Source: an uncultured Planctomycetota bacterium
Lineage (GTDB): Bacteria > Planctomycetota > Planctomycetia > Isosphaerales > Isosphaeraceae
Direction: 5' to 3'
Assembly: GCA_963737655.1 (NCBI GenBank)
Contig: CAVTTN010000002.1
Coordinates: 5,216,001-5,280,000, forward strand
DNA: 64,000 nucleotides
Below, piece after piece: positions 31,645 to 37,600 of the stretch. The position numbers are program-made. Position 1 is the stretch's first letter, and every line of letters begins with the position of its first letter.

Positions 31645-34600
31645 TCATGACGGCGACTTCCTCCCGCCCGTGGACGGTTTCGCGGATCTTCCGGCGCCGA
31701 TGGCCGTGGGTCGTGGGCTCGATCCCCCTGATCATCGCGGCGATTTGCGGGTGGCTGACCGCCTCGCTCGACCCGCTCGGGCCCGAGGCCGCCCGGCCGA
31801 TCGAGCGCAAGGCGCCCCCGAAGGTCGCCGTCGCCGCCTGGCCCGAGACGGCCCTGGACGGCCCGGAGGCCAAGCAAATCCTCCTGGACTCGCTGTCGCA
31901 GGCGAGGGCCCGGCTCGAAGCGGCCGGGGGCTACACCGCCACCTTCCGCCGCCGGGAGCGCGTCAACGACGCGTTGGGGGACGAGCAGGTCATCCGGATG
32001 AAGTGCCGCAACTCCCCGTTCGCCATCTACTTCCGGTTCGACACGCCCGAGCCCGGCAAGGAAGTCGTCTACGCCGAGGGGCGGTACGACAACCAGATGA
32101 TCGCCCACAGCGTCGGCTTCAGCCGGAAGCTGATCCCCCGGATCAAGGTCGCGCCCACCTCCGCCCTGGCCATGCGAGGCAACCGCCACCCGATCACCGA
32201 GGCGGGCCTGTTGAACCTGACCAACCGGCTGATCAACTTCCGCAAGATGGACCTGGACGACCCCGAGGCCGGGACCACCCTGGACCGCTGGGCCGACCCC
32301 GCCTCGGGCCGGACCTGGCTCCGCTCGATCCACACCCACCCGCACTTCTCCGAGTCTCGCCCCTTCCAGTACATCGAGGTCCTGTACGACCCGGAAACCC
32401 GAATTCCTCACAAGATCACCAGTTACGACTGGCCCAGGCCGGGCGAGACCGGGCCGAGGAAGCTCGCCGAGCAGTACCAGTACGACGACCTGGACCTCAA
32501 GGCCCCGCTGACCGACCTGGACTTCGACCCGGCCAACCCGGCGTACGACTTCCAGTAGGGTCCGGTTCGGCCCGGGACTCCCGAGACCCGATCCCACCGG
32601 TTTTCGACTGGAAGCCGAGGCCCGGGTATGGCATCGTGGACGGTGAGGGCCCTTCCTCTCCGCCGTGCCGGGGCCTCGACCAGTCACGCCTCTCTCGCGG
32701 AACGGGATAGGATCGCGTCCCATGGCCAGGACCACCGTCGGCTGCTCCGAGCCCGGCTGCGCCGAGCCGGCCGCCTACAAGATCGCCGCCCCCTGGAGCG
32801 ACGGAAGCTTTTCCGAGCTCAAAACTTACGGCCACGCCTGCGCCGACCACCTCGGCAGCGTCTTCCGCGCCGCCGAGCAACGTCGCCAGGAATATCAGCC
32901 CGGGCCCGGCGAGACCATCGAAGAAATCGGCCTCTACCGCTACGAACAGGGCCGACGCGACCGCCAGCTCCAGAGGCTCTGGGGCCTCGAAGAGAATTAC
33001 CGCTCGTAAGCGGTGCATTTCATGCACCCTACGGGCGGAGAGCCTTGGTGATCTCGCGGAGGTTCCTCGCGTTCTGGCCGAGGTCCGCCTTGCCGATCCG
33101 CGATTGGCTGTGGCCGGTGATCCGGGTCCCGTGCGGGATGGGCTCGAATTTCAGGCGGATATCGTCCACGAACCGCCAGACGAGCGTCTTGTGGGTGGCG
33201 TGAAGAGTCCCCGAACCCGGGTCGGCCGACTCGACCCGCCATCGAGGCAATCGCCGGAGGATCGCCTCGGCCTTGCTCACCGATTCGGCCACCGGCAACG
33301 GCCAATCGACGGCCCGGAGCCCGGGGTCGGCGGCGTTTTCGGCGATGTCGGCCCAGTTCTTCGAGAACCCGTCCCAGAACGACATCAAAACCCCCACGCC
33401 CAGGGTCAAGACCGCGGCCGCCGCGAGCCGACGGGCCCGGGATCGACGTTTCGGAAGGGCCGGAGGATCGCTCACGGATGCGGCTCGCCCGGTTTCTCGG
33501 CCCAGGACCGCCTTATTGTGATCGCGCCGGCAAGGGAATCATCGGGACCGCCGGCCGATTCGATCAGGGTCGAAGGAAAGAATGGCGAGGAGGCGACATG
33601 GCCGGCGCTTTCCCCAGGAGATTCACGCTGGCCGACGCGATGATCCTCGTAGCGGCGGCGGGAGCCGGCCTGGCGGGCGCACGATGGTGGTACCGCCAGC
33701 CCGGCTTCGTCAACCCGTCGTCGCTGGACGTCCAATCCTCGACCGAGCTCGTCGCCTGGGCCCTCATGCCGTTCATTCCGGCCCTGGCGATGATTCGGCT
33801 GAAGGGGCCCCGTCCTCGTCGTCGCAAGCTCTTGCGGGAATCGGGGTTCCAGGCGATCACGGCGAGCGGGCTGGGGGTGGTCGCGGCCCTCCTGACGGGC
33901 CGATGGGGCATCCGTCCGGGTTGGTCGAGCCTCGGCTACGGGATCGGCAGCGGCGCGCCGGACATGGTCGGGCCGGCGGTGGCGATCTCCTGGCTCCTGA
34001 CCGGCCTGGCCGGGGCCCGGAGGTCCCGACCCGGGGCGATCGACCGTTCGGGGAGGGCCCTGGGCTGGCTCTGGATCGCGGTCTGGGCCTCTCGCTGCGC
34101 GCTCTTGCCCGACTCCTTGATCCGGATGTGGATCGGTTGATGCCTCCGATGGGTCCGGGCGTCTCCCGGTCGTCACAACCGGACCGTCCCTCACCCTCGT
34201 CCTAATGGGCCGTTGGCTCGGGATTTCGGGCGTCGGGCGATGGAACGCGGGCTCGGCTCGCGACGATATAACGGTCGGTCAAGCCCGCCTCGGGGGCCGG
34301 CAGGAGCCGGAATGCTCGGGGCGGGTCCGTCGTCCGCGGGATGCGTCGTGGCCGCGTGGCCTTCTTCACCGAGGGCGACGCGCCGGGTCGGGGGCTTCCC
34401 AGCGCCTCCGCCCCGACGTCCCAGGGAGGGAACAGGAAGTGAACATCGTCACGACCCGCTTCGGACCCGTTCAGGTCGAGGAGTCGGACTTCGTCCGGAT
34501 CCCCGAGGGCCTGGTCGGTTTCCGAGGCCACACGTTGTATGTCCAGATGCCCGACCCGGTTGTGTCCGGCCTCTGGTGGCTCCAGTCCGCCAGCGCCCCG

Positions 34601-37600
34601 GACGTGGCCTTCGCGATCGTGGCCCCTCCCCTGGCCGTCTCCGATTACCGGGTCGAGCTCCGACCCGGCGACCGCACGGCCCTGGAGCTGGACGACGAGC
34701 GATCCGCGCTGATCTACGTGATCCTCAACCGGGGCGAGGGGGGCGGCCTGGTGGTCAACCTCCAGGGCCCCCTGGTGTTCAACCCGGCGAAGCGGCTCGG
34801 CCGCCAGCTGGTGCTGACCTCCAGCCGATACGCGGTCCGGTTCCCCCTGGAAGGCCCGGCCGCGTCGCCCACCCTGCCCCTGAAGACCTCCTCGACGCTT
34901 CGAGCGTCCGCCTAGGTCGTCGGGGCACCGGGGCGAGGGCCCCGGGACCTCCCGGAGACGGCCTCCTACGGCCCGATCCGCGAGGTTTCGACCCCCGCCC
35001 AGGCCCGGCGGACCCCCGGGCGGCGTGACCACGGACGGTCACGGGTCGCGGACCCAGTCGCCCGCCCCCAGGACGCCCGCCGAGCCTCATGCCCGCCAGC
35101 CGTGCCGAGCCGAGCCGAGCAGAGCAGGAGGAAGGAGCCCGAACGATGCTTGTGCTGTCCCGCCACCGCGACGAATCCATCATCATCGGCGATGACATCG
35201 TCATCACCGTGGTGGACATCCGGGGCGACAAGGTCCGATTGGGGATCGCGGCCCCGATCGAGATCAGCGTGCACCGCCAGGAGGTGTACGAGGCGATCCA
35301 GCGAGAGAACCGGCAGGCCAGCCGCCTGGACCCCCAGGACGCCCGCCAGCTCGACGCCCTCAGCCCCCCGATCCGTCGCGACCTCCGTCGCGCCCGGCCC
35401 GAAGGCGCCTGAGGCCCCGATCGGCCTTCGCCCCCTTTTCAACCCCACGCCTGCCCGGCCGCCGAACCCCCCTCAGGGATCGCGCGGCCGGTCTCTTTTT
35501 TCCACCTCCCCTGCCCTGCCCCGCCCCGCCCTCACCCCTTCGATCGTCCTCCCCCCGCACCAGTCACCATCGCGACCCGCCCCCGGCGGCGATCAGGTTT
35601 CTTGTGAAATTCAGAGGTTTTCGATCTCGCAATCGTGGATTTCGAACCGATTCACGAGACAAGATCGCGCGTGTTTGAAATCGCCTGAAATCGAAGACGG
35701 CCGATCGATCCTTCGAGAATGCAACCCATTGGCCCGATTGCGCTTAACTCACACGTTTCTGAGAAACCCACATTTCTGAATTCCTACCCATGCGCACTTC
35801 CGTTGCGCGGCGGATTTGGCTTGTTTTTTGGCCCGAACCGCGAATCAAACGAGGAAAGTGTTGTCAAGTTCGTCCCGGATGATGTCCGCTTGACGCGCTC
35901 TGGGATCGGCATCCGAAACAAGCCGAAGCCTCGTGGGGTCAACCTCGTGTCACGAGGCCCGCCCGCCCGACGTTCGAGGGTCCAGGGGATCGCGGGGCCG
36001 GGAGCCGGCCTCCCCCGATGGAACCATCGAGGGTGATCGCCCCGGACTTCCGGAAAATTCGCTTGCTCCGGCCGTGGGTCGGGCCTTAACCTGTCAATTC
36101 GAGAATGCGTCGGGCGGACGGGATTCGGATCGACAGGCGCTCGAATCCATGAGTCTTGATTCGGATCATGCCAAAGGTGAGTCCCCCTTGTCCGCGAGGC
36201 TGTCGATCCGGGGTGTGTCCCACGCATGTTTGCTTGTGTCGGTGATCCTGGCCGAGCTGGGGGCGACCCTGCTCATGGACCGCCCTGCGCTCCTCCAGCC
36301 TTCGGTGCCTTGCTTCCCCCCGATGGCGCCGAGCCGGGCCGAGACGACCATCCAGGTTCCGGTGGTCAATCGGTCGGGCCGACCGATCCGGATCGTGGGC
36401 ATCCCGAGGCCGGGCGGCCAGCCGGGCCTCTTCCGGGGATCGGGCACATCGGTGACGATCCCGCCGTGGGGCCGGGTCTGGGTGCCGATCTCGGGGGCCA
36501 TGATCCGCTCGGGCCGAGGTCTGGCGAGGCTCGTCGCCCTGACCGACGACCCCGATTTGCCCCGGTTCGAGCTGCTCGTGGACACCGGCCGCATCCCGTT
36601 CACGCCCCCGTCGCCCACGGGTCCGTCCGGCCCGACGACCCCCTGATCGATCCGTCGCGAGGATCGTCGATGGCCGACCTGAAAATGCGTTGCTCTTTCC
36701 GAGAGATTCATGTCTTCGCGATTTTCTGCGTCCTCGGAGCGCCGGCCCTGGCCGACGAGGCGACCGTGGCGAGGGTCCGCGCCGAGTTCCCGGAGGCCGT
36801 GATCGCGATGGACGAGGCGCTCAAGCACGTCCGGATCGTCGCGACCGTGGACGAGGTGGCAACGCCCCGAGGATCGACCGTGGCGAAGGCCCGGACCTAC
36901 CGCCTCGAATACAGCCGCTCGGGGCCTCTCCAGAAGCTGGTCCGAATCGAGGGCGAGGAAGGCACCGACGGCTATCAAAAGCGGGTGCTGTGCCAGGCGC
37001 CTTCCTACGCCTTCTGGGCCGACCAGGCGGGGAAAGCCCCGGGGCTGGCCCTCATGGGCTTCGACTGGGGTTTGAGCGAACATATGGATCAAGAAATAAG
37101 CATTCATAAATATGAAGTCGTTCTACAATTCACGAGAACGACCTATCCCCTGCGCGACATGATCGCCGAGCCTTCGTTCCAGGTCGTCGGGGCGACGACG
37201 GCGGTAGAAAACGGCGAGGAGGTCGTCAAGTTCGAGGTCTCTCACGTCGCGTTCATCCCGAGGCTCTACAATCCGGCCACCAAGAAGACGGAGCCGAAGC
37301 ATGACTTGAGGCGCACCCGGTTCACGGCGGTCCCCGGGCGGGGCTGGGCAATCACGCGATGGGAGCCTCTCTTCGGCGATCGGCCCTGGCCGCCACAACC
37401 CTTCGTTTACGGGACGCTCGAATCCGCGAAGGACGGCCGAACCCCCGCCGTCCCGGCCCGGATGGTCTACCACACAACACGCTCCCACGCGACGACCGTC
37501 TACACCACGTTCGAATTCGCCAATCTGCCGGACTCCGAGTTCACGCTAGCCTCGGTCGGCCTGCCCGAGGTCGCCGACCCCGGGACCGGCTCGAAGAGGC

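Follow-up and report, generated by a model that had tools for sequence, protein, structure and literature searches.

Why does a bacterial family without flagellin keep FliW and CsrA as an adjacent, constrained pair, and what would set such a switch? We analysed a window of 64,000 nucleotides from an uncultured planctomycete of the family Isosphaeraceae (genome G000), together with relatives inside and outside the family.

The fliW-csrA pair is conserved and under purifying selection

In the window, fliW (34439..34915, forward strand) encodes 158 amino acids, and its product matches PF02623 at 94.7 bits in Pfam and FliW chain A of PDB 5DMB at E 6e-15. Its GTG start lies one base before the position 34440 reported earlier, while the end of the pair at 35412 stands. 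The linked csrA (35146..35412, forward strand) encodes 88 amino acids with an arginine-rich tail (PF02599, 85.2 bits in Pfam). The pair had been described as intact and adjacent, and this description held: the two genes were adjacent in 65/65 parsed family loci, and both are under purifying selection (median dN/dS 0.18 for fliW and 0.023 for the core of the linked csrA). They do not overlap in G000, where they are 230 nt apart; the gap is 106-256 nt in all 65 loci, without translational coupling, and flagellated relatives likewise have gaps, of 67-311 nt. FliW was found in 95 of 101 family genomes and in 41/41 of high quality, about ten of the matches, in poorer assemblies, being partial or split.

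CsrA N55 is needed for FliW binding in Geobacter, as it is in B. subtilis, where FliW N108 and Q124 are required too (10.1101/2020.07.02.184341). The corresponding FliW residues N107 and Q123, as well as F58, were each kept in 65/65 family loci, and so were N55 and the IQREN motif of the linked CsrA. Because N55 and the FliW residues that contact it are invariant, the most likely direct target of FliW is the linked CsrA rather than the bulk of its paralogues. Other parts of the interface differ. P26 and A111 are replaced in the family, and the B. subtilis K123-D41 salt bridge, which is confined to Bacillales (10.1101/2020.07.02.184341), has no acidic partner here, CsrA having S41 while FliW R122 is kept (97%). 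Position 7 of the linked CsrA is H, as in many flagellated relatives.

The C-terminal tail of FliW ends in LRASA in G000 and in LRATA in 49/65 family loci; it resembles the end of the G000 tmRNA degradation tag, PSLRLAA. Flagellated relatives already have both this tail and non-overlapping genes, neither of which is therefore a new adaptation. An FHA-domain gene with an acidic C-terminus (38039..38599, reverse strand; Pfam FHA) is the usual convergent neighbour of csrA; two genes intervene in G000, and in 19 of 30 relatives' loci a homologue was called immediately after csrA. Inspection of 31 loci downstream of csrA gave no conserved small RNA derived from a flagellin leader.

Flagellin is absent while an export gate, FliA and FlgM are retained

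The reported absence of flagellin was confirmed. With working controls, Flagellin_N was over its cut-off in 0/101 family genomes. Among four weak matches below it, three carry what we take to be a chemoreceptor signalling motif and one is an unrelated coiled segment. In G000, a heptad-repeat protein of 156 aa accounts for a Flagellin_C match that passes the cut-off only if summed with its neighbour. A profile built on flagellin N-termini from the class had no match in the six frames of this genome (best E 3.3), and a divergent sister-family flagellin used as query gave one match (E 0.008), to an unrelated repeat protein. FliS is missing as well. The export ATPase FliI was found in 0/46 family genomes, and the rod motif in 2/46, both stray (an isolated FlgB and an FlgE fragment, without a homologue in G000). 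Hook, stator, FliH/J/K and FlgK/L/N gave no tblastn match in G000 with queries from a flagellated relative, a weak search that also missed the retained FliF and FliG; the absence of hook and stator thus refers to tblastn in this one genome, which is 88% complete. Described family members form no motile swarmer cells (PMC5352709).

The view of fliW-csrA as an isolated leftover did not survive, for the family keeps fliF-fliG-fliOPQR-flhB-flhA-flhF-flhG-fliA and flgM. FlhA was found in 95/101, FliP in 49/49 and FlgM in 46/46 family genomes; the order from fliF to fliA is contiguous in four relatives. In G000, the gate genes FliP, FliQ, FliR, FlhB and FlhA and the FliF/FliG housing are each over the Pfam cut-off. 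Since FlhA is followed by flhF-flhG-fliA, the gate is of flagellar, not injectisome, origin. FliA is about 90-98% identical across the family, and the N-terminus of FlgM is unusually conserved. Other parts are altered: FliG is shortened, and in 5/5 family loci the FlhB NPTH autocleavage motif is replaced, flagellated relatives having NPTE. The MS-ring protein FliF comes as two separate frames in G000 and was missed by Pfam in G051, and FlhG looks reduced in some genomes. The family thus lacks rod, filament and FliI (G000 also hook and motor) but has the gate, FliA and FlgM.

In a sample of 201 genomes of the class, 96/96 FliW-positive genomes have FliP, and only 36 of them flagellin. Ten other flagellin-less genomes, outside the family, keep FliW and FliP. 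FliW is absent from 70 FliP-positive genomes of the sample and from two flagellated families, f4 and f5 (0/48 and 0/42). A literature search, with subscription papers mostly outside its reach, found nothing on FliW or a retained export gate in this family. In a Planctopirus essential-gene supplement (PMC10632474), a csrA is in two tables; a search by name gave none of FliA, FlhA, FlgM, FlhF and FliP.

Candidate regulatory sites upstream of fliW and csrA

We searched upstream of fliW for a sigma28 promoter pattern (TAAA/TCAAG -35 box, 15-16 nt spacer, GCCGATAA-type -10 box). A putative sigma28-like -10 box, GACGATAT, lies at 34262..34269 (forward strand) behind a degenerate -35 box. Its CGATA core was present in 63/65 family loci and also in 13/22 flagellated loci. 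The same GACGATA variant stands behind a full TCAAG -35 box at a fliF-neighbouring gene in 5/5 loci, and sigma28-type promoters are conserved at this gene (5/5), at fliA (8/10) and at flgM (17/30). Alternatively, the -10 region of fliW fits a housekeeping-type box, TATAAC. Assembled RNA contigs, which come from two studies and carry no strand or level, cover fliW-csrA of a relative and leave the upstream flank uncovered; at relative locus L035 they end 22-122 nt downstream of the -10 box, itself uncovered. The two genes seem to be co-transcribed. Transcription alone would then raise both, so the FliW:CsrA ratio must be set post-transcriptionally.

A genome-wide scan of G000 for sigma28 promoters gave 7/6457 upstream regions against 0/2758 coding controls above score 18, and 19 against 6 above score 16, a modest enrichment. 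The scan was meant to find a flagellin replacement; flgM, fliA and one csrA paralogue were among its hits, but no obvious FliW ligand.

Leader patterns were defined on the first 31 loci and then tested on 34 further loci. In the fliW leader, a GGA-loop hairpin (34297..34310, forward strand; candidate CsrA site 1) was found in 30/65 family loci and in 0/29 loci of other families. A second conserved element (34332..34351, forward strand), GGGA plus a CGTCGTGG motif, matched strictly in 12 of the 31 defining loci and is visible in more. At 34425..34441 (forward strand), a GGAGG Shine-Dalgarno sequence is followed by a GGA (CAGGAAG) abutting the fliW GTG (candidate CsrA site 2); this start GGA was seen in 59/65 family loci against 0/29 others, and the GTG start itself in 63/65 against 2/29.

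CsrA leader targets follow a consensus of a GGA in the loop of a CANGGANG hairpin and a second GGA at the ribosome site. The csrA leader matches this pattern and is a candidate site. Its hairpin with a CANGGANG loop (35024..35043, forward strand) occurs in 54/65 family loci, 1/22 flagellated loci and 0/6 other flagellin-less loci, and 97.5% of cells are paired, supporting stem pairing. It lies 108 nt from the ATG in G000 and usually 36-42 nt. The GGA-rich ribosome-binding region of csrA (35124..35137, forward strand) is GCAGGAGGAAGGAG or a close variant in 31/31 first loci; its AAGGAG part occurs in relatives too. Among the 34 loci not used for definition, the csrA hairpin was found in 26 and the fliW start GGA in 32. 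GGA hairpin loops are described as CsrA targets in PMC13443453. As a genome-wide target finder the CANGGANG hairpin was too unspecific: 84/6457 leaders carry it, compared with 45 for the reverse strand, which makes the motif weak by itself. Judged by these counts, the leader GGA elements are family-specific, relatives being mostly without them. It seems that FliW-CsrA was rewired onto its own messenger RNA, with flagellin no longer the target.

One FliW and many CsrA paralogues

The nine CsrA paralogues reported for G000 correspond to nine matches over the cut-off, a count that includes the linked one, so there are eight others. That all nine keep R6, R31, R44 and E46 was borne out by the alignment, as was the expansion of the family, with 6-17 csrA matches per genome in 46/46 family genomes. 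High CsrA copy number is, as the survey's finding had noted, already in print: PMC13443453 gives up to 15 per genome, prevalent in Planctomycetota.

The claim that only the linked CsrA keeps the full C-terminal helix has to be narrowed. In G000, a paralogue at C2:6566186 also has N55 and an intact helix as far as I51-Q52, but N55 was present in just 3 of 26 parsed orthologues (of 30 loci), against 65/65 for the linked csrA. What distinguishes the linked CsrA is a conserved N55. That FliW controls at most a subset of the CsrAs agrees with the invariance of the contact residues and N55 in the linked pair. One FliW per CsrA dimer suffices, however (10.1101/2020.07.02.184341), so heterodimers could extend its reach.

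A proposed switch set mainly by FliW abundance

Our preferred explanation, which we hold with somewhat more confidence than doubt, is that FliW still blocks the linked CsrA and that the switch is set mainly by the abundance of FliW, within a retained flagellar checkpoint. The proposed inputs to this abundance are sigma28/FlgM, CsrA feedback and proteolysis. FlgM would leave, probably by passing into the periplasm through the retained gate, whereupon sigma28 would fire its promoters, including those of fliA, flgM and probably fliW-csrA. CsrA would bind the GGA sites of the csrA and fliW leaders, which would replace the flagellin leader as targets. With CsrA repressing fliW and FliW blocking CsrA, a double-negative loop would form, and repression by CsrA of its own translation would cap CsrA. 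The tmRNA-tag-like tail would make free FliW short-lived, so that the loop would reset as sigma28 activity falls. The eight other CsrAs, without a conserved N55, would be reached only indirectly or via heterodimers. Most likely, the switch would govern envelope and secreted proteins as part of a growth-phase or cell-cycle programme. Against export through the gate stand the lack of FliI and of the FlhB NPTH motif, the split FliF and the reduced FlhG of some genomes; L. oakridgensis, which has no export gate, still regulates FlgM (PMC5655016).

Does FliW need a new ligand?

The earlier argument that FliW must sense another partner started from flagellin as its only known one. This premise fails, for FliW of C. 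difficile also binds TcdR, a sigma factor (PMC11898703), and the conclusion is not forced, since the flagellin-protected patch overlaps the CsrA site and the locus has other inputs (the sigma28-like promoter, candidate CsrA sites in both leaders and the degron-like tail). A new ligand that titrates FliW, such as a gate substrate (FlgM or a sigma28-dependent protein), a sigma factor like TcdR or the FHA neighbour, is a possible but less probable explanation, and it can be compatible with control by abundance. The TcdR precedent, the conserved FHA neighbour and the unusual conservation of the FlgM N-terminus agree with it. So does the co-occurrence of FliW and FliP, expected if FliW reads a pool of exported protein; yet shared control by sigma28 would produce the same pattern, and many FliP-positive genomes have no FliW. 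In B. subtilis, flagellin protects FliW residues 3-11, 22-28 and 95-115 (PMC6070490). The latter two patches overlap CsrA-binding residues, so CsrA alone explains most of the patch conservation, and segment-wise conservation cannot separate a second ligand from CsrA binding. The N-terminal patch 3-11 is nearly invariant (T5, R7, F8 and G9 97-100% conserved in the family), which favours a new ligand without being explained either way, but it is equally conserved in all lineages. This equality and the overlap with the CsrA site mean that the conservation requires no third ligand; moreover, G000 has no flagellin-like segment and the promoter scan yielded no candidate.

FliW might instead be kept only because an unchecked linked CsrA is harmful, as a constitutive buffer or addiction pair with a fixed threshold and no signal input. 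The strict linkage in 65/65 loci and the near-invariant CsrA core would fit, and in B. subtilis deletion of fliW alone leaves CsrA unopposed (10.1101/2020.07.02.184341). We consider this improbable: loss of both genes would solve the problem, flagellated families f4 and f5 do without FliW, and the family-specific gain of leader GGAs and the conserved alternative-sigma box argue for regulated expression. Far less probable still, and already largely refuted, is an artefact, the searches having overlooked a cryptic flagellum or a strongly divergent flagellin. The incompleteness of G000 and the failure of tblastn on FliF and FliG leave some room for it, but the controlled Flagellin_N search and the class-specific profile came back empty, rod, FliI and FliS are gone too, and described members have no motile swarmer cells.

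Comparison with known systems

The fliW-csrA pair of this family shares with the Hag-FliW-CsrA system of B. subtilis (PDB 5DMB) its two proteins, their gene order and the equivalents of FliW N108, Q124 and F58 and CsrA N55. It differs in lacking flagellin and FliS, in the separation of the genes by 106-256 nt instead of translational coupling, in the candidate CsrA sites of both leaders, in the eight further CsrAs and in the tmRNA-tag-like FliW tail. In non-motile clade 5 Clostridioides difficile (PMC11898703), the FliC-FliW-CsrA switch also outlasts motility and serves other physiology, and FliW has a second partner. The two cases are mirror images: in C. difficile flagellin stayed and the early flagellar genes went, whereas here the export gate stayed and flagellin went. 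In the passages covered here, the account of multi-copy CsrA/Rsm families (PMC13443453) neither singles out one paralogue as sensitive to FliW nor refers to the loss of flagellin.

Non-flagellated Legionella such as L. oakridgensis (PMC5655016) keep a functional sigma28 and anti-sigma factor without a flagellum. L. oakridgensis has no basal body and its FlgM seems to be degraded, whereas this family keeps FliF, FliG, FliOPQR, FlhB, FlhA, FlhF and FliW. The cryptic flagellar FlhA of Chlamydiaceae (PMC5604735) likewise persists without a flagellum, and such export parts are thought to secrete other proteins, but FlhA is paired there with a non-flagellar type III system.

Buchnera has filament-less basal bodies that keep rod, rings and ATPase but not the regulators. 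Unlike Buchnera and Chlamydiaceae, the free-living lineage studied here keeps gate and regulators and drops rod and ATPase.

A wider reading, which we offer as speculative and on the whole doubtful, is that this family, and by convergence several other lineages of the class without flagellin, reduced the flagellum to a machine for signalling that has no filament. A pole-targeted (FlhF/FlhG) gate without ATPase, rod or substrate switch would export FlgM and fire the nearly invariant sigma28, with FliW-CsrA, rewired onto its own leaders, as a bistable switch downstream. The combination would serve these bacteria, which divide by budding and without FtsZ, as a checkpoint on polarity or the cell cycle.

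Implications

FliW-CsrA is regarded as a flagellin thermostat. A family that has lost flagellin yet keeps the pair under strong constraint offers a natural way to ask which other inputs can drive the switch, and how a single antagonist deals with a large set of CsrA paralogues. The graded and repeated reduction of the module in other lineages shows flagellar parts kept for signalling, not motility. For the control of polarity and budding in planctomycetes, the export gate, the polar placement proteins, the almost invariant sigma28 and its anti-sigma factor provide a concrete, deletable candidate module in cells that never swim.

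Conservation of the fliW-csrA pair without flagellin

The fliW gene (window 34439-34915, + strand; GTG start, 158 aa) matched PF02623 with 94.7 bits, and its product matched FliW of PDB 5DMB with E 6e-15. The linked csrA (window 35146-35412, + strand; 88 aa) matched PF02599 with 85.2 bits, and CsrA of 5DMB was the best solved match for its product. The survey's finding that this pair is kept without flagellin was real and family-wide: FliW was present in 95 of 101 family genomes, including all 41 of high quality, csrA was downstream of fliW in all 65 parsed family loci (gap, 106-256 nt), and Flagellin_N was above the cut-off in none of the 101 genomes, in a search that was positive in four flagellated controls. 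The family, coded f1 in the genome searches, is Isosphaeraceae according to the survey. The 66 loci fetched comprised that of the genome under study (G000), the 30 best-scoring ones and a further 35 chosen among the rest; L198 was not parsed. The count of nine CsrAs was also borne out. G000 has a single FliW; its CsrA matches number nine, the linked copy among them, all with R6, R31, R44 and E46; each of 46 family genomes examined had 6-17 CsrA matches.

Over the unsaturated pairs among 64 sequences (L034 excluded), fliW had a median dN/dS of 0.18 (1230 of 2016 pairs) and the csrA core one of 0.023 (1811 of 2016). Judged from sequence, both genes are intact and constrained. Among 50 FliW proteins placed in a tree, the 21 from the family formed one clade (support 99/96) adjoining, on long branches, two flagellated genomes of another family of the class, f6. 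There, fliW-csrA is still downstream of flgK-flgL, which fits vertical descent from a flagellar operon.

The C-terminal tail of the linked CsrA (window 35340-35412) is rich in arginine, with RR in 64 of 65 loci. The protein encoded at window 27224-28288 resembles the arginine kinase McsB. An FHA-domain gene (window 38039-38599, - strand) with a conserved acidic C-terminus was found next to csrA, in convergent orientation, in 19 of 30 loci from relatives; no FHA-domain gene was near fliW in 17 tested loci from other families.

Four weak Flagellin_N matches were rejected: three were chemoreceptors by their motif, and one was an unrelated segment. When the six frames of G000 were scanned with a profile built from the N-terminal 80 residues of class flagellins, no match emerged (best E 3.3). 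In B. subtilis, the first 80 residues of flagellin are reported to suffice for FliW binding (PMC6070490). Described family members are reported to have no swarmer cells and a 'poor representation' of flagellar genes (PMC5352709). An isolated flgB among mobile-looking genes (locus L260, genome G039) and a short contig bearing a flgE fragment (L261, G049) are probably foreign or contaminating DNA.

Retained export gate, sigma28 and FlgM

The fliW-csrA pair appears to be part of a larger retained flagellar checkpoint, which the survey had overlooked. At the sequence level, the module is present on contig C2 of G000 as flhA-flhF-flhG-fliA (5747565-5752986), fliF-fliG-fliO-fliP-fliQ-fliR-flhB (1727082-1733463) and flgM (3348435-3348719), covered by loci L109, L110 and L133. 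FliF is in two frames in G000 and in a single frame of 457-509 aa in five relatives, which makes an assembly error plausible. FliG is short. Four relatives have one continuous run from fliF to fliA. Of 101 family genomes, 95 had FlhA, including all 41 of high quality; FliP was found in 49 of 49 and FlgM in 46 of 46; FliA from 10 loci was 89.8-97.6% identical to that of G000.

FliI was above the cut-off in none of 46 family genomes, and FliS in none of four tested. Export independent of the ATPase has been reported in Salmonella (PMC4230889). A rod motif was matched in only 2 of 46 family genomes, both times in stray genes lacking a G000 homologue. No hook, stator, FliH/J/K or FlgK/L gene was found in G000, the one genome covered, by tblastn, an insensitive screen. 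Away from the flagellar cluster, two of four family genomes tested encode a protein of 320-390 aa with a FliN/SpoA domain (L255 in G061; L256 in G090). The NPTH cleavage motif of FlhB was lost in all five family loci; flagellated relatives show NPTE. A gene preceding fliF or flhA encodes a Cys/Pro-rich protein with a signal peptide, no Pfam match and a conserved YEWVLKKKR motif (C2:1725971-1726612; L109:7972-8610). It had a full sigma28-type promoter in five of five relatives.

FliW, FliP and flagellin across the class

Among 201 class genomes, 96 had FliW, 101 flagellin and 166 FliP; a profile specific to the class confirmed the FliW result. All 96 FliW-positive genomes had FliP and only 36 had flagellin; two flagellated families, f4 and f5, had no FliW (0/48 and 0/42) and had flagellin in 42 and 15 genomes, respectively. 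The distribution of FliW therefore matches that of the export gate better than that of flagellin, a pattern to which no statistic is attached since kin are not independent. Ten FliW-positive, flagellin-negative genomes were outside the family, some of which may reflect assembly gaps. On the starred branches of the FliW tree, at least three changes were forced for the flagellin-less label.

Around fliP, flagellin-less genomes G195, G243 and G250 had kept fliF-fliH-fliI uninterrupted by rod or hook genes, and G115, G227 and G240 had no fliH or fliI beside fliF. FlhB NPTH was also lost in G243 and G103. A graded reduction of the flagellar cluster, with or without fliH-fliI-fliJ, was seen in other flagellin-less genomes of the class (L214 in G195, L218 in G243, L219 in G250, L221 in G168, L210 in G115, L222 in G101, L216 in G227 and L217 in G240).

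Candidate promoter, leader elements and FliW tail

A sigma28-type motif drawn from relatives' flagellin promoters (TAAAG/TCAAG-N15-GYCGAT) was kept upstream of fliA in 8 of 10 loci, of flgM in 17 of the 30 loci that could be parsed among 32 and, as the variant GACGATA, of the secreted-protein gene usually preceding fliF (5/5). For fliW, the same -10 core was found in 63 of 65 family loci with a degenerate -35 box; a looser form of this -10 pattern also matched 13 of 22 flagellated loci.

Judged by the loci compared, the leader elements are family-specific. A hairpin with CANGGANG, a consensus that we take to be a CsrA-type site, was in the csrA leader of 54 of 65 family loci, 1 of 22 flagellated loci and none of 6 other flagellin-less loci. 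Across 45 distinct hairpins, the share of paired cells was 97.5%, and four pairs had a two-sided change, each in one sequence only; three rows with a wrongly picked segment are left out, and two loci lacked a candidate. A GGA-loop hairpin in the fliW leader (30/65 family loci versus 0/29 others) and a second GGA abutting the fliW GTG start (59/65 versus 0/29) were also found. The first 31 loci served to define the patterns; in the 34 others, the csrA hairpin was present in 26, the fliW hairpin in 12, the start GGA in 32 and the -10 box in 34. A further motif, CGTCGTGG, was in the fliW leader (window 34344-34351) and in most csrA leaders of relatives (for example, L014 and L017) and was missing from the csrA leader of G000.

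At a relative's locus, L035 (fliW, 1911-1435; csrA, 1303-1037; -10 box, 2156-2149), contigs from four RNA runs of two studies covered fliW-csrA. One spans 963-2127 with no mismatch, and none of the runs covered 2129-3357. This is a weak hint of a two-gene transcript starting just past the -10 box, as RNA contigs carry no strand, level or true start and the runs were chosen through matching with this stretch.

The FliW C-terminus was LRATA in 49 of 65 loci, with close variants otherwise. The tmRNA tag of G000 (C2:55721-56086, - strand) ends in PSLRLAA, resembling it; only 3 of 5412 G000 proteins have LRxxA ends. Flagellated relatives' FliW also carries an LRxSA tail, so the tail is ancestral.

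CsrA copies predicted to be within reach of FliW

In B. subtilis, FliW N108 and Q124 and CsrA N55 are reported to be needed for binding (10.1101/2020.07.02.184341), as is CsrA N55 in Geobacter (PMC13407953). All 65 family FliWs had the equivalents of the B. subtilis contacts, N107, Q123 and F58, and all 65 linked CsrAs had IQREN. P26 and A111 were replaced, and the linked CsrA had serine at D41, the salt-bridge partner position.

In seven G000 paralogues the helix was lost after about residue 48-50. The claim that only the linked copy keeps the full C-terminal helix needs correcting for the eighth, at C2:6566186, which retains it through I51-Q52 and has N55; among its orthologues, N55 was in only 3 of 26 (parsed from 30 loci). 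The restriction of FliW to a CsrA subset thus stood for the family, qualified by this paralogue in G000 and by possible heterodimers, because one FliW per CsrA dimer is reported to be enough (10.1101/2020.07.02.184341).

A sigma28-type promoter was seen at one csrA paralogue lacking N55 (C2:2647034-2647231, - strand), whose leader also had the CANGGANG motif, and at a sigma70-family gene (C2:6497686-6498522, - strand).

Known systems and possible mechanism

The family pair would work like B. subtilis FliW-CsrA, with the same antagonism. It falls outside the flagellin partner switch, lacking the third partner that defines that system. There are partial precedents: FliC-FliW-CsrA kept without early flagellar genes in non-motile C. 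difficile (PMC11898703), FliA-FlgM kept without a basal body in Legionella oakridgensis (PMC5655016) and FlhA kept in Chlamydiaceae (PMC5604735). A high copy number of CsrA and the presence of FliW in Planctomycetes have already been published (PMC13443453, PMC4682653). In the literature incompletely covered here, we found no published description of FliW without flagellin, or of a retained gate, in the family; the portions consulted of PMC10746217, PMC13277936 and PMC12402505 held nothing bearing on this case.

The survey had concluded that FliW must sense a new partner. A new ligand in place of flagellin could be FlgM, the only known substrate remaining; C. difficile FliW is reported to bind the sigma factor TcdR (PMC11898703), and the N-terminal patch of FliW is nearly invariant. 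We consider a new ligand rather doubtful, and one option only.

In the explanation that we prefer, the abundance of FliW would set the state. FliW very likely binds and inhibits the linked CsrA, and some CsrA probably represses csrA and fliW through their GGA leaders. Transcription of fliW-csrA by sigma28 is slightly favoured, the chance that the FliW tail acts as a degron is about even, and export of FlgM through the retained gate is tentative. Taken whole, a flagellar checkpoint working without a filament is unlikely. Repression of fliW by CsrA and inhibition of CsrA by FliW would form a double-negative loop, which could flip without a third protein once FliW synthesis exceeded its decay.
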